NCBI GenBank assembly: GCA_937944035.1
Contig: CALDZQ010000153.1
Location: forward strand, 1 to 30,589
Reading direction: 5' to 3'
DNA length: 30,589 nt
From: an uncultured Neomegalonema sp.
GTDB lineage: Bacteria; Pseudomonadota; Alphaproteobacteria; Rhodobacterales; Rhodobacteraceae
A program made the position numbers and the translations under genes. The notes under the pieces were generated by a model. The model was given only the letters and a program-made list of their open reading frames with translations. It was not told where the DNA came from and did not search any database. Every line of letters starts with the position of its first letter. Within the stretch, counting starts at the first letter, position 1. Of the stretch, positions 6,627-19,823 are shown in pieces.

Positions 6627-7994
6627 TTATGACGCCGCAGAGCCACCCCACCCCGACCACTCCGCCTCATCCACCCAAGGCGGTTTTTCCCCCGCTGCAC
6701 GGGCGGCTTTCCAGGTGTCGTAGGCGTTGCGCCGCTCACTCCAGCCATCCAACCGCTCAGGATGCCAATGCGCCGGACGGTGGAACCCCTCCGGCAACAC
6801 CGTCCCCGCGCAGCCGAAACAGGTTTTCACCGCCTCTTGCGATAAATCTTCCGCCGCTGTAAAATCAGCGAAGCTGGCCATGACGGAGTCAATGCGCACC
6901 ATGGCCAGCTTCGCTGATTTAAGCTGCGCCTGTATGAGGTCCGCCCCTTCCAAGTGCGCCTCTCTGAGGTCCGCCCCTTCCAAGTGCGCCCCTCTGAGGA
7001 CCGCCCCTTCCAAGTGCGCCTTATAGAGGTCCGCCCCTTCCAAGTGCGCCCCTCTGAGGTCCGCCCCTTCCAAGTGCGCCGTATAGAGGTTCGCCCCTTC
7101 CAAGTGCGCCCGTGTGAGGTCCGCCCCTTCCAAGTGCGCCTCTCTGAGGTTCGCCCCTTCCAAGTGCGCCTTATAGAGGTTCGCCCCTTCCAAGTGCGCC
7201 TCCGAAAGCAGGGCATTCCTGAAATTGCCCGCACGCATGTCCGCTTTGCGCAGGTTGGCCTTGCGCAGGTCCAGCACATAGCGTGACTTGTCAGGGCTTT
7301 CTTTGATTTCATACCGGACACGCGCTTTACTCCGCCGCCCTAACACTGTCAGCACGGCCTGCACATCGCTACGGACATCGGGGAAAGCCCTAACCCATTC
7401 TCTAATCTGATCATTCTTCACATCCGTAACCGGCAGCGCCTCACACCCCGCCCCCGGCGCATTCTCCCGCACATACGCGCACAGCGTCTCCATCACCGCG
7501 ATATGGTCACGCTCTGAGTCCTGAGAAATCCGCTCCAGCGCATAAATCGCCCCCAACCGCACCTCGATATTCGGTTTGTAGGTATAGATGTCGTTGCCTT
7601 CGTCATCCTTCGAGCGGATTTCCCGCGTCGTCCCCAACTGCTCCACAGCCTTCGTGAACAGGTCCGCATAATCCCGGTCCTGCTGCCGCTTCACCTGTGC
7701 TTCCGCCGCTGCCGTTGCCCGCCGCGCGATCTCGGCTCGCCAGACAGCAAAACCACCCGCAACAAGCGCGGCCAGCACCAGACCCACATTCCTCACCGCA
7801 GCTCTATCGTTCTGCCCGTCTTTGTTTAGGGGCGGATCAGCCAGCACGTCGAAGAAATCGACCAACACCCAACCCGTCAGAACGATTAGCAACGTCACAC
7901 CCGCTACGGCCAGCACTAGCGCGCCCCACGGCAGAATCCCACCTATCAGCCGCCCAAGCCGCGCGACGTGATCTGTTTTTTCACCTTCACTCAT
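6627..7994 (-). CDS. Membrane-anchored pentapeptide-repeat protein, ~455 aa, antisense cargo before g15
   Basis: Two N-terminal TM segments; DLFTKAVEQLG...EVRLGAIYALERISQDS..DH..VMETLCAYVRE; nine AHLEGAxLxx units. Start 7994 (MSEGEK) or 8012; the 635-aa track ORF runs through repeat DNA and g15. Confidence 0.85.
   Translation of the reverse strand: MSEGEKTDHVARLGRLIGGILPWGALVLAVAGVTLLIVLTGWVLVDFFDVLADPPLNKDGQNDRAAVRNVGLVLAALVAGGFAVWRAEIARRATAAAEAQVKRQQDRDYADLFTKAVEQLGTTREIRSKDDEGNDIYTYKPNIEVRLGAIYALERISQDSERDHIAVMETLCAYVRENAPGAGCEALPVTDVKNDQIREWVRAFPDVRSDVQAVLTVLGRRSKARVRYEIKESPDKSRYVLDLRKANLRKADMRAGNFRNALLSEAHLEGANLYKAHLEGANLREAHLEGADLTRAHLEGANLYTAHLEGADLRGAHLEGADLYKAHLEGAVLRGAHLEGADLREAHLEGADLIQAQLKSAKLAMVRIDSVMASFADFTAAEDLSQEAVKTCFGCAGTVLPEGFHRPAHWHPERLDGWSERRNAYDTWKAARAAGEKPPWVDEAEWSGWGGSAAS
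6931..7200 (-). repeat. Nine tandem 30-bp coding repeats (AHLEGA[DNV]L decapeptides)
   Basis: Core cgccccttccaagtgcgcc recurs with exact 30-nt period; in-frame in the pentapeptide gene. Confidence 0.95.
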
Positions 7995-8045
7995 CCCGCG
8001 ACTTTCCCCCATCCACCCCCCGTCGTAAAGCAAAACCCCGCCCCC

Positions 8046-8141
8046 TTTCACCGGGAGTGCGCAGCACGACCACGCGCTCGCCCGCCCCACGGGCGTGTGC
8101 GTCCCGCCAAAGGCGGTCCACCCCCTCCCCGGTCGACCGCT
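8046..8141 (+). repeat. Multi-hairpin repeat family 3, copy D (between pentapeptide gene start and g15 start)
   Basis: Matches copy B along its length and copy C at the 5' end. Confidence 0.85.
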
Positions 8142-8181
8142 TTTTTCTTCCCCCTCCCCCCAACACGGACTCCCCGCACCC

Positions 8182-11100
8182 ATGTCCACCCTCGTCCTCA
8201 CCGCTGCCGGAGCCGCCATCGGCGGCGCGGCCCTCCCCGCAGGCGTCGGCTTCCTCGGCGCGACCATCTCCGGCGCGGCCATCGGGTCGGGCATCGGCGG
8301 CGTGTTGGGCAGCGCCCTCGACCAGCGCCTCTTCGGCCCCGGCGCGCAAGTCCGCCAAGGTCCGCGCCTCACCAATCTCGACGTTGTCACCTCCACCGAG
8401 GGCGCGCCGGTCCCCCGCGTCTTCGGGCGTATGCGCCTCGCGGGACAAGTCATCTGGGCCACCCGCTTCAGGGAAACCGCCACTGACAGCAGCACGGGCG
8501 GCAAAGGGGGCGGCCCCGCCTCGCGCGATTTCACCTACTCCGTCAGCGTCGCCATCGCTCTGTGCGAAGGCCCGATCGCGGGCATCGGTCGCCTGTGGGC
8601 CGACGGCCAGCCGATGGACCTCAGCGGCGTCACCCGCCGCCTGCACCACGGCACAGAGAACCAGCCCCCCGACCCCCTCATCGCAGCGCTGACCCCCGAC
8701 ACCCCTTCCTACGCGGGCACAGCCTACATCGTCTTCGAGGACTTGCCGCTGACCCCCTACGGCAACCGCCTCCCCCAGATCACGGTCGAGGTCCGCCGCC
8801 AGCCCGTCCCCCCCGCCGGGCACGAGGACGGCCCCAACCTCCCCGCGCTGATCGAGGGCGTCGCCCTCTCCCCCGGCTCAGGTGAGTTCGCGCTCTCCAC
8901 CCAACCCGTCCGCCGCATCACGGGCGAGGGCATCTACGAGTCCGAGAACGAAAACAACACCGCCGGACAGCCCGACTTCCTCACCGCCATCGACCAGCTG
9001 GAGGCAACCGCCCCGAATTGCCGCTCGGCCCTGCTGATCGTCTCGTGGTTCGGCACAGACCTGCGCGCGGGCCACTGCCAACTCCACCCCGGCACCGACC
9101 GCGTCACCAAAGAGACCGATCCCCTCGCATGGCTCGTGTCGGGCGAAACCCGCAGCTCCGCCCACGCAATCAGCACAGACGACACCGCCAACGCCGTCTA
9201 CGGCGGCACACCGTCCGATGTCTCCGTCTTCCAAGCCATCCGCGAGCTGACCGCGCGGGGCATAGAAGTCACCTTCTACCCCTTCATCCTGATGGACATC
9301 CCCGCCAACAACCCGATGAGCCAACCCGCCTTCCCGTGGCGCGGACGCATCGAGGGGGCAGGGCAGGGCGACATCGACACCTTCTTCGGCACGGCCGCCC
9401 CGTCCGACTTCGCCCCCTGGACAGGCGCAACCATCCCCTACACCGGCCCGGATGAGCGCACCCTGCGCCGCATGATCCTCCACTACGCCCATCTCTGCGC
9501 CGCTGCCGGAGGGGTCGAGGCATTCTGCATCGGGTCAGAGCTTCGCGGCATCACCACCACCCGCGCGGGCAACACGTATCCTGCTGTCCCCGCCCTGCGC
9601 GCCCTCGCCGCCGATGTGCGCGCCATCCTGCCAAGCACCAAGATCAGCTACGCCGCCGACTGGTCCGAATACGCCAACCACCGCTTGTCAGACGGCACAC
9701 TGACCTTCCATCTCGACCCGCTGTGGGCCGACCCGAATATCAACTTCATCGGCATCGACAACTACCTGCCGCTGAGCGATTGGCGCACGGGCGGCGACCA
9801 TGCCGACGCGGCAAACGCCAACAGCGTCTACGACCTCGCCTACCTCACCGCCAACGTGGAGGGCGGCGAATACGCCGACTGGTTCTACGCCACGCCAGCC
9901 GACCGCGCCGCCCAAACCCGCACCCCGCTGACAGACACCGCCCACGGCGAGCATTGGGTCTTCGGCGTCAAGCGGCTGCGCGACTGGTGGTCCAACCCCC
10001 ACCACAACCGCCCCGCTGGCGTGCGCGAGGCGACCCCGACCGCATGGCAACCCCAATCCAAACCGATCCGCTTCACCGAAACCGGATGTCCCGCCGTCGA
10101 TCTGGGTGCGAACCAGCCCAACGTTTTCCACGACCCCAAATCGTCCGAATCCGCATTCCCCTACCACTCACGCGGCGTCAGGGATGACGCGATGCAGCGC
10201 CGCTATCTCCAAGCCATATTAGCCCATTGGCAAAACGATCCGATGGTCGAGCGCAGCTACGTCTGGACATGGGACACGCGCCCCTACCCGGATTACCCCC
10301 TGCGCAGCAGCGTCTGGAGCGACGGCCCCGCCTATGACAAAGGCCACTGGATCACGGGCCGCCTGGATGCCGCCCCCCTCGCCGAACTGGTCGCCGAGAT
10401 CTGCGCCAGCGCCGGAGAGACCCGCATCGATGTAAGTCGCCTGCACGACCTCGTCCACGGCTACACCATCGACCGCACCATGAGCGCCCGCGACGCCCTC
10501 GCCCCGCTGATGCTGGTCTACGGCTTCGACGCGGTGGAAAGCGACGGCGTCATCCGCTTCACCCCGCGCGGCGCGGCCCCCGTCGCCACGCTGGACGAGG
10601 CTGATCTCGTCGAGTCCGAAGACCCCTTCACCCTGACACGCGCGCAGGAAACCGATCTCCCCCGCGCCGTGCGTCTGGGCTACATCCGCGCCGATGCCGA
10701 ATACAGGCGCGGCACGGCGGAGGCGACGCTGGAGCCGACCGCCTCCAACCGCATCGACGCCAGCGACCACGCCATCGCGCTCCCCGGCGGCAAAGCCCAA
10801 GCCGCCGCCAACCGCTGGCTGTCCGAGGCCCATGTCGCCAAAGACAGCGCCGCCTTCGCGCTGCCCCCCTCCCGCCTCGCGCTGGAGCCGGGTGATACGA
10901 TCACGCTGGTGAATGACGGTAACAGCTACCCCCACCGCCTCGCCGCGATTTCAGAGGCCGACAGCCGCCAGATCGACGCCATCCGCGTCGCCCCCGATCT
11001 CTACATCCCGTCCGATGCGCCGGAATCCCAGCCCGAACCGCCCGCCCTGCCGTTGCAAACCCCCGTCATCGTCGAATTCCTCGACCTCCCGCTCCTCAAA

Positions 11101-11973
11101 GGCTCCGAAAGCCCCGCCCCCCACATCGCCGCTTTCGCAAGCCCGTGGCCCGGCGCGGTCGCCCTCTACAGCGCCCCGTCCGAGGCCGATTTCGCCCTGA
11201 CCCTCACCCTGGAACGCCCCGCCACACTGGGCCGCACCCTCACCGCGCTCACCCCAAGCGCCCCCTCCCGCTGGAGCCGAACAAGCGTCGACATCAAACT
11301 CTCCTCCGGCAGCCTGCGCAGCCGCGACCGCCTCAGCACCCTCGCCGGAGCCAACGCCGCCGCCCTGCGCACCCCGTCCGGCGCGTGGGAGGTGATCCAG
11401 TTCCGCGAGGCATCGCTGACGGCCCCGCAAACCTACCGCCTCACGGGCCTGCTGCGCGGTCAGGCCGGAACCGAACCGCTCATCACAGACCTGCCCGCCG
11501 GAACCCGCTTTATCCTCATCACCGACGCGCTCAAACAACTGCCCCTCACGGCTGAGGATACCGACCGCGAAGTCCACTACCGCTATGGCCCCGCAAACCT
11601 GCCCTTCGACGCCGAACCCTTCCGCGCCACCACCCACACCCCCTCCGGCGCAGCCCTGCGCCCCTACGCCCCCGCCCATCTGCGCACGACCACCACCGAC
11701 AACGGAGACCTCTCGATCACATGGACCCGCCGCAGCCGCGTCGGCGGCGACAGCCTGCAAACCGAACCGCCCATCGGTGAAGAATCCGAACGCTATCTGG
11801 TCGAATTCTCCACCCCCTCCGGCCCCCTGCGCAGTTTTGAGACAACCTCCCCCGCCACCACCTACACAGCCGCCCAACAATCCTCTGACGCCGCCACGCG
11901 GCCCCTAACCATCCGCATCGCCCAACTCTCCGCTGTGATCGGCCCCGGCTTTTTCGCTGAGATCGTGGTCTAA
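8182..11973 (+). CDS. GTA megatron / host-specificity baseplate protein (g15-like; GTA_TIM + phage-tail domains), 1263 aa
   Basis: ATG 8182 (MSTLVLTAAGAAIGG); EGAPVPRVFGRMRLAGQVIWATRF; SGEFAL; VSWFGTDLRAG; YRRMILHYAHL-like RRMILHYAHLCAAAGGVEAFCIGSELRG; ISYAADWSEY; SKPIRFTETGCPAVDLGANQPNVF; WTWDTRPYP; HWITGRL. Confidence 0.95.
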   Translation: MSTLVLTAAGAAIGGAALPAGVGFLGATISGAAIGSGIGGVLGSALDQRLFGPGAQVRQGPRLTNLDVVTSTEGAPVPRVFGRMRLAGQVIWATRFRETATDSSTGGKGGGPASRDFTYSVSVAIALCEGPIAGIGRLWADGQPMDLSGVTRRLHHGTENQPPDPLIAALTPDTPSYAGTAYIVFEDLPLTPYGNRLPQITVEVRRQPVPPAGHEDGPNLPALIEGVALSPGSGEFALSTQPVRRITGEGIYESENENNTAGQPDFLTAIDQLEATAPNCRSALLIVSWFGTDLRAGHCQLHPGTDRVTKETDPLAWLVSGETRSSAHAISTDDTANAVYGGTPSDVSVFQAIRELTARGIEVTFYPFILMDIPANNPMSQPAFPWRGRIEGAGQGDIDTFFGTAAPSDFAPWTGATIPYTGPDERTLRRMILHYAHLCAAAGGVEAFCIGSELRGITTTRAGNTYPAVPALRALAADVRAILPSTKISYAADWSEYANHRLSDGTLTFHLDPLWADPNINFIGIDNYLPLSDWRTGGDHADAANANSVYDLAYLTANVEGGEYADWFYATPADRAAQTRTPLTDTAHGEHWVFGVKRLRDWWSNPHHNRPAGVREATPTAWQPQSKPIRFTETGCPAVDLGANQPNVFHDPKSSESAFPYHSRGVRDDAMQRRYLQAILAHWQNDPMVERSYVWTWDTRPYPDYPLRSSVWSDGPAYDKGHWITGRLDAAPLAELVAEICASAGETRIDVSRLHDLVHGYTIDRTMSARDALAPLMLVYGFDAVESDGVIRFTPRGAAPVATLDEADLVESEDPFTLTRAQETDLPRAVRLGYIRADAEYRRGTAEATLEPTASNRIDASDHAIALPGGKAQAAANRWLSEAHVAKDSAAFALPPSRLALEPGDTITLVNDGNSYPHRLAAISEADSRQIDAIRVAPDLYIPSDAPESQPEPPALPLQTPVIVEFLDLPLLKGSESPAPHIAAFASPWPGAVALYSAPSEADFALTLTLERPATLGRTLTALTPSAPSRWSRTSVDIKLSSGSLRSRDRLSTLAGANAAALRTPSGAWEVIQFREASLTAPQTYRLTGLLRGQAGTEPLITDLPAGTRFILITDALKQLPLTAEDTDREVHYRYGPANLPFDAEPFRATTHTPSGAALRPYAPAHLRTTTTDNGDLSITWTRRSRVGGDSLQTEPPIGEESERYLVEFSTPSGPLRSFETTSPATTYTAAQQSSDAATRPLTIRIAQLSAVIGPGFFAEIVV

Positions 11974-11983
11974 CCCTACTTCT

Positions 11984-12010
11984 CCCTCCCCCTTGGGAGG
12001 GCGGGGTGGG
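11984..12010 (+). repeat. REP-like palindrome family 1, copy 2
   Basis: ccctccc-cctt-gggaggg-cggggtggg, 10 nt after the g15 stop. Confidence 0.6.
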
Positions 12011-12067
12011 TGTCTCAAAGCCTGTCCCTGCATCGAGATTGGCGAAAAATAGCATAAAAATAACACC

Positions 12068-12137
12068 GTCATACTCCGCGAAGGCGGGGTATCCAGCCTC
12101 GCGGCCTGAAAGACTGTCTCTCCATCAATCGGGTCGG
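12068..12137 (+). repeat. REP/MITE-like family 2 (GTCAT..CCGCGAAGGCGG..ATCCAG), copy 1, right end degenerate
   Basis: gtcatactccgcgaaggcggggtatccagcctcg..cctgaaaga..tctcc..caatcg aligns with 14292-14360. Confidence 0.75.
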
Positions 12138-12198
12138 TGTTCCCCGCCGAAATCACCGTCTGCCTCCCCCTTCTACCTCCCCCAACACGAAAGCCCTT

Positions 12199-13296
12199 AT
12201 GACCCCCAACCTCGCCCTGACCCTCCTCGCCGCATCCCAAGCGCAAAAGCATGTCACCATCAACGAAGCCCTCACCCGCATCGACGCCGCCGCGCAAACC
12301 GCCGTCCTCACCCGCACCCTCACCGCCCCGCCAACCACCCCCGCTGACGGCGACCGCTACCTGATCGACGGCCCCGCCACGGGCGATTGGCAAGGGCATG
12401 AGGACCAGATCGCCGCATGGGACGCCCCCGCCCAAGGCTGGCTCTTCCTCACCCCGCATCCGGGCTGGCGCGTCTGGATCATCGACGAGGACACACTCCT
12501 CGCCCGCACCGCCGCCAGCACATGGCAGCCTGTGGGCGGCGGCGGTCAGCTCAACCCCGTGGCGGGCGACCTGCTCGGCGTCAACACCAGCGCGGATGCC
12601 GCCAACCGCCTCGCCGTCGCCTCCCCCGGCGTGCTCCTCACCCACGAGGGCGCGGGCATCCGGACAAAGCTCAACAAAGCCGCCGCCTCTGATACCGCGT
12701 CGCTGCTGCTGCAAACCAACTACAGCACCCGCACCGAGTTCGGCCTTGTTGGCGATGATGACACCGTCCTCAAAACCTCCCCCGACGGCAGTGCCTTCAC
12801 CGAGGCAATGCGCATCCCCGCCGCCACCGCCCGCCCGGGTTTCCCCCAAGGCATCACCCTCGCCGGAGCCACCCCGCTCACCCGCTACGAGGAGGGCGAC
12901 TTTACGCTGACACTCGGTCCGGGCGCGACGTCGGGCCAGTGGGATGCGGCCACGGGCCTTGCCGTCGAGAGCGCCCGCTACACCCGCATCGGCAACCTCG
13001 TCCACCTGCGCGCCGCCTTCCGCTTCACCGGACTGCCGGACGCCCCGATAACCGCCGCCACCTCGCGCAGCCTCGACATGGCCCCCTTCACGCCGACCGA
13101 TGCGGCCCCGACCGACTCCTTCGACCACGCGGGCATGGCCACCATCGTCGGCCCCCTATCGAACGGAGGCAGCGCGTTTGCGTTTGCGTATCTGAACAAG
13201 ATCGGGCGGCTGTTCCTGTCCCTAGCACCCCCCGCCATCAACCCGCCGGAGACTTCGGCGCTGATCCTCCTGAACCTGACCTACGAGGCCGACTGA
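12199..13296 (+). CDS. DUF2793 tail fibre protein (rcc00171-like N-terminus) with a C-terminal tip domain
   Basis: TPNLAL.LLAASQAQKHVTINEAL..ID; GDRYLI...ATGDWQGHEDQIAAW; NRLAVAS.GVLLTH; LNKAAASDTASLL.Q; EFGLVGDDD; tip with RYEEGDFT...ARYTRIGNLVHL. Confidence 0.85.
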   Translation: MTPNLALTLLAASQAQKHVTINEALTRIDAAAQTAVLTRTLTAPPTTPADGDRYLIDGPATGDWQGHEDQIAAWDAPAQGWLFLTPHPGWRVWIIDEDTLLARTAASTWQPVGGGGQLNPVAGDLLGVNTSADAANRLAVASPGVLLTHEGAGIRTKLNKAAASDTASLLLQTNYSTRTEFGLVGDDDTVLKTSPDGSAFTEAMRIPAATARPGFPQGITLAGATPLTRYEEGDFTLTLGPGATSGQWDAATGLAVESARYTRIGNLVHLRAAFRFTGLPDAPITAATSRSLDMAPFTPTDAAPTDSFDHAGMATIVGPLSNGGSAFAFAYLNKIGRLFLSLAPPAINPPETSALILLNLTYEAD

Positions 13297-13299
13297 TCC

Positions 13300-14043
13300 A
13301 TGCCGACCCCGTCCATCGTCCGCGCCAACAACCCCTGCGCCCTGCGCCCCTTGTCACGGGGGCGCTGGAAAGGACAGACCGGAACCATACGCACCCCCGG
13401 CGGCGCGTATTGCGCGTTTTCAGACCCCGTCTGGGGCGTGCGTGCGGGCCTTCGCAATCTCGACACCTACCGCCGCCGCCACCGCCTCACCAGCGCGGCC
13501 CAGATCATCGCCCGCTGGGCACCCAAATCTGACAACAACCCCGAAAGCGCCTACGCCCGCTTCATCGCCCGCCGCCTCGGCCTCTCGGTCCTGCAACCGA
13601 TCCCGTTCGACTACGACCACACCAGCCGCCTTGTCGCCTCCATCATCCGGTTCGAGACGGGAACCAACGCCGTCGGCCCCGACACCATCGCCCAAGCAAT
13701 GGCCCTAATGGCCGCCGAGGAAGAAACCGCAGGCCGCGACCCGGCCCCCTATCTGGTCGAGAGCGCCCCGCTCAAACCGCTCACCCGTTCCAAAGAAATC
13801 GCGCTGGGCGGGGGCGCGGCCACCATCGGCGCGGGCGGCGCACTCGCCTACGCCCCCGAAGCCATAGACGCCGCCCGCTCCGCCATCGACACAGGCCGCG
13901 ACGCGGCACAGTCCATCGGCATCTCCAAACCCGCCGCCAGCCTGGGCGAGTTCGCCTGTATCGGCAGCTTTCTGATCCTGCTGCTGTTCGGCCTCGCCAT
14001 CCTCGCCAACCGCCTCCTCGCCCGCTACCGCGCCGAAAGATGA
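13300..14043 (+). CDS. Putative endolysin (phage 'virion protein/P5-like' lysozyme-type family) with C-terminal hydrophobic helices
   Basis: RANNPCALR..W.GQTG..Y..FSDP.WGVRA...L..Y...L....IIARWAP..DNN..AY...IA...G...LVASIIRFETG motif string; tail SKEIALGGGAATIGAGG and FLILLLFGLAILANR. Starts 3 nt after the fibre stop. Confidence 0.65.
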   Translation: MPTPSIVRANNPCALRPLSRGRWKGQTGTIRTPGGAYCAFSDPVWGVRAGLRNLDTYRRRHRLTSAAQIIARWAPKSDNNPESAYARFIARRLGLSVLQPIPFDYDHTSRLVASIIRFETGTNAVGPDTIAQAMALMAAEEETAGRDPAPYLVESAPLKPLTRSKEIALGGGAATIGAGGALAYAPEAIDAARSAIDTGRDAAQSIGISKPAASLGEFACIGSFLILLLFGLAILANRLLARYRAER

Positions 14044-14046
14044 CCC

Positions 14047-14214
14047 ATGACCTCGACCCTGACGATCCCCTTGCCCAACACCCTCACCCTGACCCGCACC
14101 ATCAGTCCGAGCGGCGACCTGTCCCTGCACATCACCGACCCCTCCGGCACGATCCACTACAGCGAAGACATCACCGCCCCGCAGACCGTCGACACACCGG
14201 AGCAAATCCTCTGA
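14047..14214 (+). CDS. Small 55-aa Thr-rich protein MTSTLTIPLPNTLTLTRTISPSGDLSLHITDPSGTIHYSEDITAPQTVDTPEQIL (not in ORF track)
   Basis: ATG 3 nt after the endolysin stop (TGA-ccc-ATG, same spacing as fibre-endolysin TGA-tcc-ATG); C-ending codons as in neighbouring GTA genes. Confidence 0.6.
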   Translation: MTSTLTIPLPNTLTLTRTISPSGDLSLHITDPSGTIHYSEDITAPQTVDTPEQIL

Positions 14215-14291
14215 TTGCGTCACTTCTGCGCGGCCCTCGCTACGGCTTGGCTCTGATTATCGCAGTAAAGCGCTTACATCAGCAAAGCAGA

Positions 14292-14409
14292 GTCATCATC
14301 CGCGAAGGCGGATGATCCAGTCTCGTTTCCTGAAAGATATTTCTCCGGCAATCGAGTCTGGATTCTTTGCTGGAGCCTGTCCTCCGCGAAGGCGGGGGCA
14401 GAGAATGAC
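14292..14409 (+). repeat. REP/MITE-like family 2, copy 2, with nested hairpin insertion
   Basis: Reverse complement of 15604-15699 except that the second loop carries tggagcctgtcctccgcgaaggcggggg. Confidence 0.85.
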
Positions 14410-14422
14410 GGAAGATTTCTGA

Positions 14423-14719
14423 ATGACCCTCCTCGCCCGCCTCCTCACACTCCCCCGCTGGCTCCTCCTCGCCACCGCAGCAACAACCGCCATCACCACC
14501 CACACCGCCGCCTACCACCTCGGCGCAGCCTTCGCCTTCCGCGCAGGCTTCGACAACGGCGCAGCCACCACGCTCAACCGCCTCGCCGCCCAAGCCGCCC
14601 GCCGCACCGCCAACCAGATCGAAGACCGCCTCAATGCCGAAACCGCTTCTCATCCTCACAATGGCGAGCGCCCTGACGGCCTGCGCTGCGGTCCCTCCGC
14701 CCGTGACTGCCCCGAATAA
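14423..14719 (+). CDS. Putative inner-membrane spanin (Rz-like), 98 aa
   Basis: N-terminal hydrophobic segment, Ala-rich helix LNRLAAQAARRTANQIEDRLNAE, C-terminal RCGPSARDCPE; its 3' end overlaps a lipoprotein gene. Confidence 0.6.
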   Translation: MTLLARLLTLPRWLLLATAATTAITTHTAAYHLGAAFAFRAGFDNGAATTLNRLAAQAARRTANQIEDRLNAETASHPHNGERPDGLRCGPSARDCPE

Positions 14720-14873
14720 CTGCCTCAGCTGCCGCGCCCTCCCGCCGCCGAGTTCCAGCATCACCGACACCCCTAAAACCCGCGCGCTGACGGACGTGAT
14801 CTTCACCGTATGGGCCTGCACCTGCGCCCCCGACCTCGCCGCCGCCAAAGGACTGAAATGCTCCCCCGCCTGA
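14634..14873 (+). CDS. Putative outer-membrane lipoprotein spanin (Rz1-like), 79 aa
   Basis: Lipobox ALTA-C17, Pro-rich mature part (VPPPVTAP, LPPPSS), several Cys; starts 86 nt inside the upstream gene in another frame, GAAGA RBS. Confidence 0.65.
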   Translation: MPKPLLILTMASALTACAAVPPPVTAPNNCLSCRALPPPSSSITDTPKTRALTDVIFTVWACTCAPDLAAAKGLKCSPA

Positions 14874-15538
14874 CCGACAGAGCCGCCCTTACCCTGATGG
14901 GCGCAACCCTCGCCATCGCCTTCACCGCCGCGCTGACCTTCACCCGTGACAGCACCCGCCCCTGCACCGAGCGCGTGTTTCTCAGCGATAACGACTCCTA
15001 TTCATGGGGCACAATCACCCGCTGGGGCAGCGGCTATCTCACCGCTTTCCACGTCATCGACAGCGGCCAGATCGTCGACGGCCCCGCCGTATCAAGCATC
15101 GGCGACCTGCCCGCCACCGATTTCAGCTTTCTGACGGGCGCAGCCATCAAATCCGACCCCGCCAGCATCCCTGCCCCCCAAGGCGCGGTGACGCTGGAGG
15201 GTTTTCCCGCCCGCGCGACCATGCGAGAGCGGCTGAACGGCACAGTCTACGCACCGGACACTGTCCCGCCCGGCATATGGGTCATGCTCGACCACCCCGA
15301 ACCGCTGGTGGGTGGCTTCTCCGGTGGCTGTGTGCGCGATGCTGATAACGAGGTCGTCGCCGTCATCATGGGCGCATCCTCAATGAAGCTCGACGGCCAA
15401 ACCCGCCACTTCGCCCGCGTCATCCCAATCCGCGACGCCCTGCACGAGATCCAGGGCGCACCGCCCCCAAACACCCGCCCCCTGACCCTGCTCCCCCGCC
15501 TGATCCCGGCGTTACAGCAATGGCCCGAACGCGGATGA
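14858..15538 (+). CDS. Membrane-anchored trypsin-like (S1) serine protease, 226 aa
   Basis: ATG 14858 after AAAGGA, overlapping the lipoprotein gene end; TM ALTLMGATLAIAFTAALTF; triad motifs YLTAFHV (His), TDFSFL (Asp), GFSGGCV (Ser). Confidence 0.75.
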   Translation: MLPRLTDRAALTLMGATLAIAFTAALTFTRDSTRPCTERVFLSDNDSYSWGTITRWGSGYLTAFHVIDSGQIVDGPAVSSIGDLPATDFSFLTGAAIKSDPASIPAPQGAVTLEGFPARATMRERLNGTVYAPDTVPPGIWVMLDHPEPLVGGFSGGCVRDADNEVVAVIMGASSMKLDGQTRHFARVIPIRDALHEIQGAPPPNTRPLTLLPRLIPALQQWPERG

Positions 15539-15603
15539 TTTCCTCTGTCCCGGATTTGATGCTACCGCATTCACATCTTTTCGTGTTCGACGAACAAGGC
15601 ACA

Positions 15604-15699
15604 GTCATTCTCTGCGAAGGCAGAGAATCCAGACTCGATTGACTGAGAAATAATCTTTCAAGACACGAGGCTGGATCATCTGCCTTCGCAGATGATGAC
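15604..15699 (-). repeat. REP/MITE-like family 2, copy 3 (complete, two terminal hairpins)
   Basis: gtcattctctgcgaaggcagagaatccag ... ctggatcatctgccttcgcagatgatgac; inverted relative to copies 1 and 2. Confidence 0.85.
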
Positions 15700-15816
15700 A
15701 GTGTTTCTTTTTGAGGAGCTACCGAAATCCTCACTCAAGAGACTTTCTTACATAGATAGTGAATCGCAAATGCTCTGACCGGGGCCTCCCAACGGCGATA
15801 CAATCGAAAGCCCTGA

Positions 15817-16377
15817 ATGCCCACGCCGAGCCTACGCCTGAACCGCGCCGCCGAATACGCGGATAAATTCCTGAAAATCACCGCCGCCACCGCCCTTCTC
15901 GGCGGGGCCGGAGCCTTCACCTTTCTGAGCGATGCCCTGCGCGACAGCATCCAAGACTATTTCGGCATCAACGCCATCGTCGCCCGGATTGAGAGCATCG
16001 AGGCCCGCCTGCCCGGCCAGAAAGTCGCGATCTACGACGCGTCGTTCTCTTATATCGAAGGCCCGTGCGTGATCGGCGACGTATGCATCGCCCGCTTCAA
16101 AATCCGCCGCACCCCTTACGGCGCAGACTGCTCACAGCCCCGTGTGACGCCCTATGTCGATAATCACGGCGGCGTCAAACACCCTGCCGAATACATCGGC
16201 GGCAGCTTACGCGCGGGCGCGGATGTCTGGTCCCAAATCGAAATCCGCTTCCGCGTCCCCGCCAACGCACAGGCCGGCCGCGCCGCCTATGCCTCGCTGC
16301 AAGAATACCACTGCCCCAACGGCACGGTATCGGAGGAGTCGATCTCGTTGAGTTTTATCCTCAAAGCGGGCGCTTGA
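15817..16377 (+). CDS. Single-TM protein with 4-Cys periplasmic beta domain, 186 aa, unknown function
   Basis: Hydrophobic ITAATALLGGAGAFTFL, short coiled segment, Cys in GPC, DVC, ADC, YHC; GAAAG RBS. Confidence 0.7.
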   Translation: MPTPSLRLNRAAEYADKFLKITAATALLGGAGAFTFLSDALRDSIQDYFGINAIVARIESIEARLPGQKVAIYDASFSYIEGPCVIGDVCIARFKIRRTPYGADCSQPRVTPYVDNHGGVKHPAEYIGGSLRAGADVWSQIEIRFRVPANAQAGRAAYASLQEYHCPNGTVSEESISLSFILKAGA

Positions 16378-16523: not shown

Positions 16524-17393
16524 ATGGACAATCTACGCGGCGCGGGGATTATGGTGCTGGCGATGCTGGGCTTCGCGGTGGAGGATATGTTCATCAAGCT
16601 GCTGGCGGACAGCTTGCCCATCGGTCAGATTATCGGGATGGTGGCGCTGGGCGGGGCGGTGATCTTCGCCACTATCTGCCGCACCCAAGGTCTTGCCCTT
16701 TTCTCGCGTGATATGCTCGGTGCGCCCGTCCTCATCCGCAATACCGGAGAGTTGATCGGCACGATCGGCTTCGTCACCGCCATCGCACTCACGCCGCTCT
16801 CCACAGCGTCCGCCATCCTGCAAGCCACCCCCCTCGTCGTCACCCTTGGGGCCGCGCTGTTTCTGGGCGAGAAAGTCGGCTGGCGGCGGTGGTCGGCGAT
16901 TTTGGTCGGCTTTCTCGGCGTCCTGCTCATCATCCGCCCCGGTACGGACGGGTTCGACATCCTGTCGCTGTTCACGCTGCAAGGCGTGCTCGGCCTCGCC
17001 ATCCGCGACATCGCCACGCGCCGAATCCCCAAATCAATCGCGTCGATGCAGCTCAGCTTCCTCGCCTTTCTCGTCCTCATCCCCGCATCCCTGATCCTGC
17101 AAGCCATGAACGGCACATGGTGGGTGCAGCCGTCGTCTCCGGAGTGGGTGCTGGTCGGCGGGTCGATCCTGATTGCGGTGGTGGCCTATTACGGCATCGT
17201 CGCCGCCATGCGTGTGGGCGAGGTCAGTTTCGTGACCCCCTTCCGCTACAGCCGCCTGTTATTCGCGCTGTTCATCGGCTTTTTCGTCTTCTCCGAGCGC
17301 CCCGACGCCCTGACTCTGCTGGGCGCAACCATCATCGTCGCGTCTGGCATCTACACCGTCTGGCGCGAGCGGAAGGTGAAGCAGTTAAGCTGA
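16524..17393 (+). CDS. DMT (EamA/RhaT) family transporter
   Basis: About 10 TM segments; LPIGQI, A..ILQATPLVVTLGAALFLGEKVGWRRWSAILVGFLGVLLIIRPG, V.PFRYSRL, FSERPD. Confidence 0.93.
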   Translation: MDNLRGAGIMVLAMLGFAVEDMFIKLLADSLPIGQIIGMVALGGAVIFATICRTQGLALFSRDMLGAPVLIRNTGELIGTIGFVTAIALTPLSTASAILQATPLVVTLGAALFLGEKVGWRRWSAILVGFLGVLLIIRPGTDGFDILSLFTLQGVLGLAIRDIATRRIPKSIASMQLSFLAFLVLIPASLILQAMNGTWWVQPSSPEWVLVGGSILIAVVAYYGIVAAMRVGEVSFVTPFRYSRLLFALFIGFFVFSERPDALTLLGATIIVASGIYTVWRERKVKQLS

Positions 17394-17837
17394 AACCGTC
17401 GGTGATTTTTCCGGTAAGTCCGGCAACCGTGCGAATATCGCCTGTTTCATCGCGTTGAAGTCATCCGCGCTCGACGTTTTCTTGTTGAACGCCGCATAGA
17501 CTTCCTTGCCGTCGCTCTCCCGATACCCCAACAGCACAATCCGCCCGCTGCTATCGAAATCCGCGAAAGTCAGCGCATCCCAGCCAATCAGCGTCGTCGA
17601 GAATACCCCGCGATGCTCAACCCCGCCTTCCCTGACCGCGCCATAGATGGGTTTGCGGATAAAACTGCGCAGCGCGAACAGCGCCCAGACCGAAAATAAC
17701 AGTCCCATCGTCAAATCGAAACCGCTGCCGGTTTGCGACCAGCGCCATAAATTCAGCCCCGCAGCGGCGGAAATCAGCGCCAGATTCAGTAAAATGAACG
17801 CAAGCGCGCGTCCGGTTCGTCTCAATTCTACGCCCAT
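17385..17837 (-). CDS. Hypothetical membrane protein (2 TM + PH-like beta domain)
   Basis: Starts 3 nt after the parE stop; two hydrophobic helices then GGVEHRGVFSTTLIGWDAL. Confidence 0.7.
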   Translation of the reverse strand: MGVELRRTGRALAFILLNLALISAAAGLNLWRWSQTGSGFDLTMGLLFSVWALFALRSFIRKPIYGAVREGGVEHRGVFSTTLIGWDALTFADFDSSGRIVLLGYRESDGKEVYAAFNKKTSSADDFNAMKQAIFARLPDLPEKSPTVSA

Positions 17838-17840
17838 GCC

Positions 17841-19823
17841 TTAAACATCCACATCTTCCGCAAACCGCGCGTTTTCCTGAATATACTCAAACCGCTTCTC
17901 GGCCTTCTTACCCATCAGCCGCTCGACAAGGCTCGCCGTCTCGCCCGGCTCAATATCCTCCAGCCGCACACGGATCAGCTTGCGTTGAGCGGGGTCCATC
18001 GTCGTGTCCTTCAACTGTTTGGCCATCATCTCGCCCAGCCCTTTGAACCGCCCGATGTCGATCTTGCCCTTGCCGCTGAAACCCGTTTCCATCAGGCGAT
18101 CGCGCTCCTCCTCATCGGCGGCATAGATCGATTTCGCCCCTTGGGTCAGGCGGTACAGCGGCGGCGCGGCCAGATATAACTTGCCCTTGGCCACGAGGTC
18201 GGGGAATTCGCGATAGAAAAATGTCATCAGCAGCGCCGCGATATGCGCGCCATCCACATCCGCGTCCGTCATGATGATAACCCTGTCATAGCGCAGGTCA
18301 TCCTCGTTATACCGCTTGCCCGGCTGAATCCCCAACGCGAGCATCAGGTCTTGCAGCTCCTGGTTTTGCGCCAGCTTATCCGCCGTGGCATTCGCGACGT
18401 TGAGGATTTTCCCCCGCAGCGGCAGCACCGCCTGAAACTTCCGGTCCCGCGCCTGTTTCGCCGACCCGCCGGCCGAATCCCCCTCGACCAGAAAAATCTC
18501 CGACCCCGCCTTGGTCGCATTCGAGCAATCGGTCAGTTTGCCGGGCAGGCGCAGGCGCTTGGTCGCCGATTTACGCTGCGTCTCTTTCTCCGCCCGCCGT
18601 CTCAGGCGGTCGTCGGCCCGCGCGATGCAGAAATCGATCACCGTCTCGGCCCGTTTCGGATCAGCCGCCAGCCAGTTGTCAAACCGGTCCCGCAGCGACC
18701 CCTCCACCAACCGCGCCGCATCCGCCGTGGACAGCTTTTCCTTCGTCTGTCCCTGAAACTCCGGTTCGCGCAAGAAGACAGAGATCATCGCCCGCGCGTT
18801 GATCATCACGTCTTCCGCCGTGATCTGCGCCGCTTTCTTGGTCCCGATCATTTCCCCGTGGGCGCGGATTGCCCGTGTCAACGCTTGGCGCAGCCCGATC
18901 TCATGCGTCCCGCCTTGCGGTGTGTGGATGGTGTTACAGTAAGACGAGATGCCCCCGTCCACCATCTGCGACCAGTGGATCGCCCATTCCACTGCGCCCG
19001 GCGTCTCGCCGAATTTCTCGGCAAAATCCGCCCGCCCCGCAAACGGCTCAGGTGACAGCGTTTCCGTCCCCTCAAGCTCGGCTGCCAGAAAATCCGCCAG
19101 CCCGTTCGGGAAGTGAAACACCGTTTCTTCCGGCGTTGCATCCCCGTCCTTGATGAGCGCCGCGTCACATTTCCAGCGGATTTCCACGCCCCGGAACAGA
19201 TACGCCTTCGAGCGCACCATCCGCAGCAACCGCGCGGGCTTGAACGTCGCCCGCTCCCCGAAAATTTCAGGATCGGGCGAGAACGTCACCGTCGTCCCCC
19301 GCCGGTTCTGCGTGGCCCCGCGATCCTCAAGTCCCGTGATCGGCAGTCCGCGCGAGAAAACCTGCCCGTACAGCTTTTTCTCCCGCGCCACCTCGACCTC
19401 CAGCCGGTCCGAAAGCGCGTTGACGACCGAAACACCCACCCCGTGCAACCCGCCGGATGTCTGATACGCTTTGCCGGAGAATTTCCCGCCGGAATGCAGC
19501 GTTGTCAAAATCACTTCCAGCGCCGATTTATCGGGAAAGCGCGGATGCGGGTCCACAGGGATACCCCGCCCGTTATCGCGCACCGTCACGGAATTATCCG
19601 CCCGCACATGAATATCGATCCGGTTCGCGTGGCCTGCGACCGCCTCGTCCATCGAGTTGTCCAGCACCTCCGTCACCAGATGGTGCAGCGCACGCTCGTC
19701 CGTACCGCCGATATACATGCCGGGCCGTTTGCGCACAGGTTCAAGGCCTTCAAGAACCTCAATATCCTCGGCGGAATACGCTTTTGACGCGGCGTCGTTT
19801 TGGGCAAATAGGTCAGAAGACAT
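17841..19823 (-). CDS. parE: DNA topoisomerase IV subunit B
   Basis: EGLEPVRKRPGMYIG, DNGRGIP, GGLHGVGVSVVNALS, EGDSAGGSAKQARDR, PLRGKILNV, IMTDADVDGAHI, RFKGLGEM..QLKDTTMDP; 660 aa, lacking the GyrB insert. Confidence 0.95.
   Translation of the reverse strand: MSSDLFAQNDAASKAYSAEDIEVLEGLEPVRKRPGMYIGGTDERALHHLVTEVLDNSMDEAVAGHANRIDIHVRADNSVTVRDNGRGIPVDPHPRFPDKSALEVILTTLHSGGKFSGKAYQTSGGLHGVGVSVVNALSDRLEVEVAREKKLYGQVFSRGLPITGLEDRGATQNRRGTTVTFSPDPEIFGERATFKPARLLRMVRSKAYLFRGVEIRWKCDAALIKDGDATPEETVFHFPNGLADFLAAELEGTETLSPEPFAGRADFAEKFGETPGAVEWAIHWSQMVDGGISSYCNTIHTPQGGTHEIGLRQALTRAIRAHGEMIGTKKAAQITAEDVMINARAMISVFLREPEFQGQTKEKLSTADAARLVEGSLRDRFDNWLAADPKRAETVIDFCIARADDRLRRRAEKETQRKSATKRLRLPGKLTDCSNATKAGSEIFLVEGDSAGGSAKQARDRKFQAVLPLRGKILNVANATADKLAQNQELQDLMLALGIQPGKRYNEDDLRYDRVIIMTDADVDGAHIAALLMTFFYREFPDLVAKGKLYLAAPPLYRLTQGAKSIYAADEEERDRLMETGFSGKGKIDIGRFKGLGEMMAKQLKDTTMDPAQRKLIRVRLEDIEPGETASLVERLMGKKAEKRFEYIQENARFAEDVDV

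Follow-up and report, generated by a model that had tools for sequence, protein, structure and literature searches.

A phage-type lysis gene cassette with a PDZ-less DegS-like protease behind the GTA tail genes of an uncultured Neomegalonema

In this study, we describe a cassette of lysis-type genes located directly 3' of the GTA tail genes of an uncultured sludge bacterium of the genus Neomegalonema. Its gene content and placement make it fairly probable that positions 12199-15538 hold a GTA tail fibre gene and a phage-derived lysis module for GTA release, which would replace the GH108 endolysin/holin of the RcGTA type. Given the position of the cassette behind GTA tail genes, the genus probably releases its particles with a tool set unlike that of the textbook GTA. 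The set of genes is conserved, under selection and translationally coupled, and its new element is a DegS-like serine protease devoid of a PDZ domain.

Results

The following features were identified in the window, that is, the whole stretch of 30,589 nt that was analysed:

8182-11973, + strand: g15, megatron-like distal tail protein, the upstream anchor (Pfam and PHROG)
12053-12148, no strand assigned: REP/MITE-like copy in the g15/fibre gap (repeat families D1, I1)
12199-13296, + strand: DUF2793 tail-fibre candidate (Pfam DUF2793, 3.5e-26; PHROG tail fibre families)
13300-14043, + strand: Enc34-type endolysin, 247 aa (fold, catalytic residues, PHROG 873)
14047-14214, + strand: p55, small acidic soluble protein, 55 aa (homologues, GC3)
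14277-14370, no strand assigned: REP/MITE-like copy separating p55 and p98 (repeats D1, I2, I4)
14423-14719, + strand: p98, i-spanin candidate (conservation, anatomy)
14634-14873, + strand: p79, o-spanin candidate lipoprotein (lipobox, overlap with p98)
14858-15538, + strand: serine protease (ORF 14810-15538; real start at 14858, set by orthologues)
15589-15711, no strand assigned: palindromic pair of REP/MITE copies in the p63 slot of relatives (repeats I2-I4)
15817-16377, + strand: p186, TM/periplasmic protein, 186 aa (lineage-specific)

The anchor gene g15 matched the Pfam families GTA_TIM (4.4e-128), Phage-tail_3 (3.4e-48) and Rcc01698_C (8.3e-28) and, in the PHROG search, tail protein PHROG 4271; its product is 63-72% identical to those of other Neomegalonema species. 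The same-strand gene series described behind it in the initial annotation was recovered with every ORF in place, and so was its tight spacing. Gaps of 3 nt separate fibre from endolysin (13297-13299) and endolysin from p55 (14044-14046), p98 and p79 overlap by 86 nt (14634-14719), and p79 and the protease by 16 nt (14858-14873). The ORFs from the fibre to p186 are real genes under purifying selection, beyond the chance ORFs of a GC-rich genome. GC3 is 0.78-0.91 in the cassette ORFs and lower in antisense ORFs, dN/dS of the cassette genes is 0.19-0.48, and synonymous change (pS) is depressed in both frames of the dual-coding p98/p79 overlap. No terminator-like site was found on the + strand between g15 and the protease.

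A search of relatives for an endolysin, a spanin pair and a protease behind the GTA tail, as had been suggested, found the order lys-p55-p98/p79-protease in eight further species of the genus, flanked by the GTA tail genes and cysE. The cassette is also present in metagenomic loci that are more distantly related (L027, L029 and L036), the first of which reads g14-g15-DUF2793-lys-p61-p98-o-spanin-protease-p63, with 4-nt overlaps, up to cysE. In L009, L010, L012, L027 and the P0031 contig, and likewise in GH108-type loci, the gene immediately 5' of the endolysin is a DUF2793 gene; L005-L007 have none between g15 and the endolysin. A reverse-strand gene sits between g15 and the cassette in L008-L011, and since this occurs in several species, co-transcription with g15 is not general.

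The Enc34-type endolysin was found in nine genomes and GH108 in four other genomes of the genus, with both together in none. In these four species, a sister group, the same slot is occupied by a module made up of a GH108 + PG_binding_3 endolysin and a DUF6107 membrane protein, which follows g15-DUF2793 and precedes cysE in G006, G008 and G014; in G015 it also follows g15-DUF2793, and the stretch fetched stops at the contig start, short of cysE. The cassette-bearing genomes, that of the window included, yielded no other GH108 endolysin. The attachment of a lysis cassette to the GTA tail end, in an arrangement unlike rcc00555/rcc00556 of RcGTA, was thus correctly recognized at the outset. The description as a single-locus GTA is not supported: the contig begins inside the tail module, the head genes lie on other contigs, with the GTA-type capsid encoded on one of these, and in better-assembled relatives the portal does not adjoin the capsid.

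The three larger gaps of the window (11974-12198, 14215-14422 and 15539-15816) each contain a copy of dispersed REP/MITE-like repeats, which occur on 16-25 contigs of the genome. Their counterparts in relatives are 4-nt overlaps or another gene; in L027 there is no such gap, the last 4 nt of g15 being shared with the DUF2793 gene. MITE insertions may uncouple the cassette genes of the window, which counts against a dedicated release module.

The 247-aa hydrolase is an endolysin of the Enc34/M4Lys type, alike in fold, in catalytic Glu, Trp and Tyr and in membrane domain, and not a new kind. A catalytic domain (about residues 1-145) is followed by a C-terminal two-helix membrane domain, with a weakly hydrophobic, Gly/Ala-rich segment at about 166-185, a strongly hydrophobic one at 211-243 and a basic tail; the structure model places the helices at 172-205 and 215-246. 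The Enc34 endolysin (7q47) was matched by hmmsearch against the PDB (E 7.7e-15) and by Foldseek (E 1.5e-6, prob 1.0; the sole match with E <= 0.001), Enc34 ORF39 by BLASTP (1e-12), and the endolysin family PHROG 873 at 1.4e-30. Residues E119, W73 and Y85, aligned to E131, W79 and Y95 of Enc34, are invariant, and dN/dS is 0.19. Full-length endolysins of this class lyse without a holin (PMC8943055). A membrane-tailed endolysin lacking a small holin, at first taken as undescribed, thus belongs to a known class.

Two conserved proteins encoded behind p55, p98 and p79, are likely an envelope-spanning pair. The first, kept in nine loci and in L027, has an N-terminal Ala/Thr-rich TM segment of weak hydropathy (1.27), a short helical periplasmic part (~65 aa) and a C-terminal Cys-x6-Cys, with C89 and C96 invariant; its position and size are comparable to those of Enc34 ORF40 (84 aa). 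It had no match in Pfam or PHROG, and among the Atlas clusters that bear a name, those nearest to it belong to the i-spanin families DUF2570, DUF2514 and Phage_lysis (0.78-0.81), which is a lead only. The second has a lipobox, L-T-A-C17, in agreement with the consensus [LVI][ASTVI][GAS]C (PMC6139136), Pro-rich stretches and five further Cys; lipobox, PPP and the five Cys are retained among orthologues, the latter two without variation. Its arrangement resembles that of Enc34 ORF41, with no sequence similarity found between them. Comparisons with Pfam, PHROG and the Enc34 spanins placed neither protein in any known spanin family by sequence. Nevertheless, the Rz-like/Rz1-like overlap proposed earlier fits what we found, since a TM protein with an overlapping lipoprotein has spanin anatomy.

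Three small genes differ in their distribution. Homologues of p55 (GC3 0.91; pN/pS 0.58) were found in all eight loci inspected and in L027, and in five of the eight the end of this gene and the start of p98 share 4 nt; hydropathy revealed no TM segment in p55, and family and PHROG searches gave no match. In seven of nine loci, a 63-aa gene (p63) overlaps the stop of the protease by 4 nt. Its product, encoded beside the lysis genes, has a coiled helix at its N-terminus and a TM segment at its C-terminus; it has no Pfam match, and the Atlas clusters closest to it are viral proteins of the XhlA family (0.93). Neither the window nor L012 has a p63 gene, and none exists anywhere in the G000 assembly; it was lost in the window lineage, where the rest of the cassette is still under selection. 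The absence of a canonical small holin, as initially annotated, describes the window; in relatives the holin-like or XhlA-like p63 follows the protease. The gene for p186 is restricted to the window and L012, the relative closest to it (pN/pS 0.24 between them), and has a promoter-like site of its own (15775-15804); its product gave no family match and is not similar to p151/p145 of relatives. This TM-periplasmic protein had been counted as part of the lysis cassette, but with such a confined distribution it probably falls outside the conserved module.

The protease, part of the cassette from the initial annotation onwards, proved real, conserved and unusual. It has a trypsin-type serine protease fold, DegS/HtrA-like and without PDZ domain; in the AF2 model (pLDDT 86.8) an N-terminal helix spans residues 7-26, and a periplasmic location, via a membrane anchor or signal peptide, is predicted. 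Foldseek matched DegQ, DegP and DegS (E 1.6e-7, prob 1.0), and Pfam Trypsin_2 scored under threshold. Residues H65, D88 and S155 and the pair C36/C158 are invariant, and dN/dS is 0.23. The family is rare, with 12-13 representative clusters at E <= about 1e-30 among 1.8 billion. Homologues occur in the cassettes of L027, L029, L034 and L036, and the family recurs in cassettes of uncultured Mu-like phages, adjoining C-terminally tethered endolysins of two catalytic types. It is also found outside cassettes, on another contig of this genome (C370) and in L035, which counts against a dedicated release module.

Discussion

One of the closest known counterparts is the ORF39-41 block of the Hafnia phage Enc34, in which the endolysin gene likewise precedes overlapping genes for a short TM protein and a lipoprotein. 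The endolysins (242 aa in Enc34, 247 aa in the window) share catalytic fold, Glu/Trp/Tyr and two-helix membrane domain; the spanin pairs (84/68 aa with a 74-nt overlap, and 98/79 aa with an 86-nt overlap) have no detectable shared sequence. Enc34 has an ORF38-type holin upstream, whereas the window has none and its fibre gene abuts the endolysin. Moreover, the window adds p55 and the periplasmic serine protease, and its relatives also p63, in an alphaproteobacterial host and a GTA context instead of a phage. M4Lys is the endolysin of Salmonella phage BSPM4; both phages are Casjensviridae/Chi-like (PMC8943055). Enc34 and Chi phages lyse without such a protease, which also weighs against the proposed module.

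Phage Mu encodes the SAR endolysin gp22, the releasin gp25 (DUF2730) and the spanins gp23/gp23.1 (PMC9239132). Both Mu and the window combine a membrane-tethered endolysin with the lack of a classical holin, and that of Mu needs an accessory for its release. The tether is C-terminal in the window and an N-terminal SAR domain in Mu, and the accessory is a candidate periplasmic serine protease in the former and a cytoplasmic DUF2730 protein in the latter; the window had no detectable DUF2730. The same cassette type, protease included, is found at the Mu lysis slot of two uncultured Mu-like contigs. One (L033) has transposase A/B, lysis genes and terminase in this order, and its p104 matches a PHROG Rz-like spanin (6e-4); the other (L034) has MuB, GemA and Mor, after which come a GH24 lysozyme whose C-terminus carries a TMD, spanin-like genes and a protein homologous to the window protease (E 6e-52).

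Such phage contigs raise the question of whether the cassette is the leftover of an unrelated, for example Mu-like, prophage or a mobile cargo island, and hence not dedicated to GTA release. Insertions concentrate between and behind the GTA tail genes, where RTX, pentapeptide and EamA genes, membrane genes on the reverse strand and MITE copies occur, and a reverse-strand gene parts the cassette from g15 in some species. We nonetheless regard this origin as quite unlikely, as the cassette stands without other phage genes alongside and is intact, under purifying selection and in the same position in at least nine species and also in distant lineages; start/stop coupling ties it to g15 and fibre in L027, and it alternates with the GH108 module in a single slot.

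Somewhat less unlikely, though still improbable, is that the endolysin is correctly assigned and p98/p79 are protease substrates, regulators, inhibitors or an unrelated pair, the outer membrane being breached by another route. Their lack of sequence membership in spanin families, the short periplasmic part and weak TM segment of p98 and the translational coupling of p79 to the protease agree with this. On the other hand, an N-terminal TM protein and an overlapped lipoprotein right behind an endolysin correspond to published spanin criteria, Pro-rich stretches and conserved periplasmic Cys are present, the Enc34 spanins are just as short, the L033 counterpart matches an Rz-like spanin, and all family-named Atlas neighbours of p98 are i-spanin families. 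That the 247-aa enzyme is instead a particle-associated or housekeeping wall hydrolase, acting in recipient DNA entry or envelope remodelling, seems very improbable. Its catalytic domain does occur within structural or injection proteins of many phages (epsilon15, PM2 P5, tape-measure-like proteins and Gp29 of PDB 9vvp), but here, as in Enc34 ORF39, it forms a stand-alone protein of ~245 aa with a C-terminal two-helix anchor. Besides, it has spanin-like neighbours, this endolysin type occupies the lysis slot of Mu-like contigs, and the GTA already has the wall peptidase genes g13/g14.

If the cassette is a GTA release module, the endolysin would accumulate tethered in the inner membrane and, in the manner published for M4Lys and Enc34 ORF39, gain access to the wall through its membrane domain with no classical holin involved, while p98 and p79 would act as a two-component spanin in outer membrane removal. 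The protease may be a lysis accessory, which could either free the tethered endolysin by a cut in the linker or in the periplasmic loop between its two helices, or cut envelope tethers. With E. coli DegS/HtrA it shares the trypsin fold, N-terminal membrane helix, periplasmic catalytic domain and His-Asp-Ser triad; it differs in the lack of PDZ, in its rarity and in being embedded in lysis cassettes. In relatives, p63, which resembles XhlA of the Bacillus PBSX prophage (PF10779) and is not present in the window, might add timing or membrane permeabilisation.

Release of RcGTA-type particles is the presumed role shared with the GH108 endolysin rcc00555 and holin rcc00556 of Rhodobacter capsulatus. 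The window differs from that system in endolysin family, in having spanin candidates and a protease, and in the location of the lysis genes, which adjoin g15 and fibre instead of forming a separate locus. In Caulobacter crescentus, a CARD-NLR-like GTA lysis hub, LypABC, involves no endolysin or holin (PMC13236601). As in the window, a GTA lineage has lysis machinery other than that of RcGTA; the mechanism is unrelated, the kit of the window consisting of an endolysin and candidate spanins of the classical phage type.

Genes of the Cassette

Judging from sequence, the genes behind the tail gene g15 are an Enc34/Mu-type lysis cassette (Enc34 is a Hafnia phage) fixed to the GTA tail module. The window is the entire contig C153 of an assembly of 389 contigs that is 91% complete (G000), and its relatives belong to Neomegalonema, family Neomegalonemataceae, Rhodobacterales. 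Every ORF listed by the initial annotation was found on the forward strand, with the spacing it had claimed.

Features of g15 and the cassette in the window
8182-11973, forward strand: g15 (GTA_TIM, Phage-tail_3, Rcc01698_C)
12053-12148: REP/MITE-like copy
12199-13296, forward strand: DUF2793, fibre candidate
13300-14043, forward strand: lys, 247 aa, predicted Enc34-type endolysin
14047-14214, forward strand: p55, 55 aa
14277-14370: REP/MITE-like copy
14423-14719, forward strand: p98, 98 aa, overlapping p79 by 86 nt
14634-14873, forward strand: p79, 79 aa, lipoprotein, overlapping p98 by 86 nt and the protease by 16 nt
14858-15538, forward strand: protease, overlapping p79 by 16 nt; start at 14858 supported by orthologues
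15589-15711: REP/MITE-like copy
15817-16377, forward strand: p186, 186 aa

We regard the cassette ORFs as real genes and not as GC-rich noise, because their GC3 lies between 0.78 and 0.91, their order is kept in eight other species of the genus, their dN/dS ranges from 0.19 to 0.48, and synonymous change (pS) is reduced in both frames of the overlap between p98 and p79. One further ORF, at 12006-12347, was rejected as non-coding (GC3 0.55), and Rfam gave no match within the window. Each of the three larger gaps in the cassette holds one copy of a REP/MITE-like hairpin repeat family, whose copies are dispersed over 16-25 contigs of this genome; the gaps that it fills are sites of overlapping genes in relatives.

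An Endolysin of the Enc34/M4Lys Type

Both its sequence and its AF2 model indicate that lys is an Enc34-type endolysin with a C-terminal TMD. A profile from 23 homologues matched the Enc34 endolysin's catalytic domain in the PDB (7q47) at E 7.7e-15, and lys itself matched Enc34 ORF39 by BLASTP (1e-12, 32% identity over 134 aa) and PHROG 873 (1.4e-30). The model, with pLDDT of 84-98 across 10-residue blocks of residues 41-150, retrieved 7q47 in Foldseek (E 1.5e-6, prob 1.0, TM(target) 0.64) and nothing else at E <= 0.001; the predicted fold is all-helical and resembles the alpha lobe of lysozyme. Residues E119, W73 and Y85 are invariant in the 23 homologues and align with Glu131, Trp79 and Tyr95 of Enc34. 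Toward the C-terminus the model has helices at 172-205 and 215-246, hydropathy being weak at the Gly/Ala-rich residues 166-185 and strong at 211-243, and a basic tail follows. This two-helix membrane domain is conserved among the homologues, and Enc34 ORF39 (242 aa) ends in one as well.

No canonical holin, that is, a small protein with at least one TMD, was found at 11974-15816 of the window. The initial annotation had considered the membrane tail and the lack of a small holin atypical; they are rather the signature of a phage class already described, to which Enc34 ORF39 and M4Lys, the endolysin of Salmonella phage BSPM4, belong. The two enzymes are reported to be toxic at full length, and M4Lys to use its membrane domain to lyse cells with no holin (PMC8943055). 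Muralytic, TMD-dependent and holin-independent lysis is established only for these two enzymes and, by analogy, is predicted for lys. The GRDPxPY linker of lys was considered as a protease site and rejected; the motif is probably structural, because a similar DRAPY is present in Enc34, where there is no protease.

Spanin Candidates and p55

Behind the endolysin gene of Enc34 lie overlapping genes for a TM protein of 84 aa and a lipoprotein of 68 aa, both annotated as spanins. In the cassette, p98 and p79 are candidates for an overlapped two-component spanin on account of their anatomy, for which the spanin features and the lipobox consensus were taken from PMC6139136. The N-terminal hydrophobic segment of p98, the putative i-spanin, is conserved but weak (KD 1.27), and its periplasmic part, about 65 aa long, includes a short helical stretch and, at the C-terminus, two invariant Cys (C89, C96). 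The o-spanin candidate p79 shows the lipobox L-T-A-C17 in the window, which is canonical in 7/10 orthologues and near-canonical in 3/10, as well as two PPP stretches and five invariant Cys. The 86-nt overlap, with its reduced pS in both frames, is kept in relatives.

Pfam, PHROG and NCBIfam searches returned no family for p55, p98, p79, p186 or p63, which leaves p98 and p79 outside the catalogued spanin families of these databases, and hhalign and BLASTP comparisons of both with Enc34 ORF40/41 and with their equivalents in a cassette-bearing locus (L029) gave nothing significant. Among named Atlas neighbours, three i-spanin families lie closest to p98, which we take as a lead only, and the positional equivalent in a Mu-like contig (L033) matches the PHROG "Rz-like spanin". 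The product of p55 is soluble, acidic and weakly constrained; it had no match in the Atlas, and its homologues occur in 8/8 inspected loci, most of them overlapping the start of p98 by 4 nt.

The Module across the Genus

The order of endolysin, overlapping TM/lipoprotein pair and serine protease, which the initial annotation had proposed to look for behind g15, is kept in eight other Neomegalonema species. The conserved module consists of six genes: lys, p55, p98/p79, the protease and p63. The last of these (63 aa) looks XhlA-like and is strongly selected (pN/pS 0.27); in seven of nine loci it has a 4-nt overlap with the protease stop. Neither the window nor its nearest relative has p63, and the entire G000 assembly lacks it; in the window its slot is taken by two REP copies that form a palindromic pair and by p186, which is lineage-specific. 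Purifying selection on the remaining five genes persists between the two genomes without p63. As a counterpart of p151/p145 of the relatives, p186 was rejected, there being no similarity.

According to the initial annotation, the usual neighbour of g15 in Rhodobacterales is cysE, and in the relatives this gene is reached downstream of the cassette. A metagenomic locus (L027), with an endolysin 55% identical to lys, reads g14, g15, DUF2793, lys, p61, p98, o-spanin, protease, p63 and two more genes, with 4-nt overlaps to cysE, a layout that probably differs little from the ancestral, operon-like state. Behind p186 in the window (16524-19823) we found an EamA transporter, a bPH-domain protein and ParE, not cysE, which in G000 lies on a separate small contig (C336, 370-1218); this indicates a rearrangement or an assembly break relative to the other species. 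Several species have reverse-strand genes between g15 and the cassette. A conserved reverse-strand membrane protein of 370-430 aa, of no known family, occupies this interval in L008 (1757-3061), L009 (oriented, 5820-6944), L010 (4-1161) and L011 (oriented, 5311-6420).

Exchange with the RcGTA-Type Lysis Module

The strongest argument that this slot encodes GTA release is that a recognised GTA lysis enzyme replaces the cassette in position. The Enc34-type endolysin was found in nine of the 16 Neomegalonema genomes and the GH108 endolysin of the RcGTA type in four others (G006, G008, G014 and G015). None of the 16 has both, and GH108 was not detected in any of the nine cassette-bearing genomes, G000 included; the three genomes with neither endolysin are 68-87% complete. 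In 4/4 cases the GH108 module stands behind g15-DUF2793. It comprises a GH108+PG_binding_3 endolysin, a 125-aa lipoprotein, a 230-aa protease-like protein, a DUF6107 membrane protein and another TM protein. In G006, G008 and G014 cysE stands behind it; in G015 the module is cut off inside the protease-like ORF, where the contig starts.

Positions of the GH108 module
L021 19467-20000 and L022 1-4325: G006
L038 5086-9587
L039 4283-9102
L023 1-2705

Such a swap with an RcGTA-type module within one genus provides direct comparative evidence that the slot encodes a release function and that lysis modules can be exchanged. The 230-aa protease-like protein is conserved and has no signal peptide. Its homology to the cassette protease was considered and is not established: His/Asp/Ser motifs fall in register, but the alignment is not significant (hhalign E 0.0023, prob 12.5%), and a PDB search with the 230-aa protein gave no match.

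A Periplasmic Serine Protease Beside Tethered Endolysins

The cassette protease is a conserved and so far undescribed component. Its AF2 model (pLDDT 86.8) shows a helix at the N-terminus and a trypsin fold, for which DegQ, DegP and DegS are the closest Foldseek matches (1.6e-7), and His65, Asp88, Ser155 and two Cys are invariant. No PDZ domain was matched, the chain stopping about 30 residues past the protease domain. As modelled, the protein is DegS-like in fold and topology and, because the C-terminal PDZ domain(s) are absent, not a member of the HtrA family.

The family is rare, with about 12-13 representative clusters at E <= about 1e-30 among 1.8 billion, and it was absent from 300 sampled alphaproteobacterial genomes except that of the window. 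Neither three versions of the protease nor the 4-TM gene behind it had a tblastn match in 50,697 phage records, and a pattern search for the protease in IMG/VR found none. Members also occur outside cassettes, in contig C370 of G000 and in L035. The C370 copy (4282-4796, at the contig end) is a partial paralogue that shares 52-55% identity with the L036 version and the Mu-like ones, and upstream of it a reverse-strand DNA-3-methyladenine glycosylase-like gene takes the place of an endolysin.

Contigs of Mu-like phages place the family in a wider context. One IMG/VR contig (L033), with transposase A/B and terminase, carries in its lysis slot a tethered endolysin of the Enc34 type together with an Rz-like protein, a lipoprotein, a protease of chymotrypsin type with a Tat signal, and multi-TM proteins, an arrangement repeated in L032; at one position in such Mu-like contigs the cassette protease is therefore replaced by a non-homologous one. 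A metagenomic Mu-like element with MuB, GemA and Mor (L034) encodes, at 4544-7238, a GH24 (Phage_lysozyme) endolysin that likewise ends in a membrane domain of two helices; behind it come a TM protein with an overlapped lipoprotein, then a small TM protein, a protein clearly homologous to the window's protease and a 4-TM protein. The C-terminal tether is therefore not limited to Enc34-type catalytic domains. In two further loci (L029 and L036) a fibre and an Enc34-type endolysin occur with spanin-like genes, the window's protease family and an XhlA-like protein, in L036 behind a g15-like gene. Across these contexts, a periplasmic serine protease is repeatedly found next to endolysins that are tethered at the C-terminus and belong to two catalytic types. 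Unlike the cassette, Enc34 and Chi phages have no such protease, and our literature search turned up no account in which a serine protease belongs to a lysis cassette.

It is conceivable, although we consider it rather doubtful, that the protease represents a new class of phage/GTA lysis protein, a proteolytic 'releasin' that frees or triggers C-terminally tethered endolysins of the Enc34 or GH24 type. If so, it would account both for the absence of a holin and for the way in which Enc34/M4Lys-type enzymes become active in these lineages, and its recurrence and its exchange for a non-homologous chymotrypsin-type protease would mark a required lysis step. The paper on the Mu "releasin" weighs, and then discounts, a proteolytic model for its own unrelated cytoplasmic protein (PMC9239132).

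Possible Route of Release

How GTAs leave the producer cell is a live question. Under the mechanism that we propose, lys would accumulate in the inner membrane and reach the wall by its own membrane domain, after which the p98/p79 pair would remove the outer membrane; the protease might free or trigger the tethered endolysin, or else cut envelope tethers, and in the relatives p63 might contribute membrane permeabilisation or timing. The R. capsulatus GTA relies on a holin-endolysin pair encoded at a separate locus. GTA lysis in Caulobacter involves the immune-like LypABC hub (PMC13236601). A Chi/Mu-phage-type cassette attached to the tail end of the cluster would represent a third arrangement for GTA release. 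The rare serine protease family that accompanies tethered endolysins in GTAs and in Mu-like phages known from uncultured material offers a lead to an undescribed Gram-negative lysis step and to the activation of Enc34/M4Lys-type endolysins.

State of the GTA Cluster

The presence of GTA_TIM and Rcc01698_C in the window's g15, with g12-g14 upstream, identifies the tail as RcGTA-type. The interpretation in the initial annotation is supported for a lysis cassette at the GTA tail and not supported for a single-locus GTA: the contig starts in the tail module, the GTA-type capsid of G000 lies on contig C220, and in relatives the portal is not adjacent to the capsid. The distance between capsid and g15 is about 8 kb in G013 and G002. 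The only portal match near the capsid of G013 (C4:87229-88209) carries an in-frame TAA and sits 9 kb upstream, and in G002 (contigs C52, C5 and C96) no portal match was found on the contig of capsid and g15. The head module may be split or partly decayed in the genus.

In G013 (L005 2487-8548) g12-g15 are contiguous. At 1443-8181 of the window, other ORFs are interspersed among g12-g15: that of an RTX protein, a 477-aa gene on the reverse strand, a 334-aa ORF and, also on the reverse strand, a pentapeptide-repeat gene. The ORF of the latter (6627-8534, reverse strand, 635 aa) begins with about 119 residues that are the antisense of the g15 start and that match relatives wherever g15 does; the true start of the pentapeptide-repeat gene therefore lies downstream, that is, to the left of 8182.
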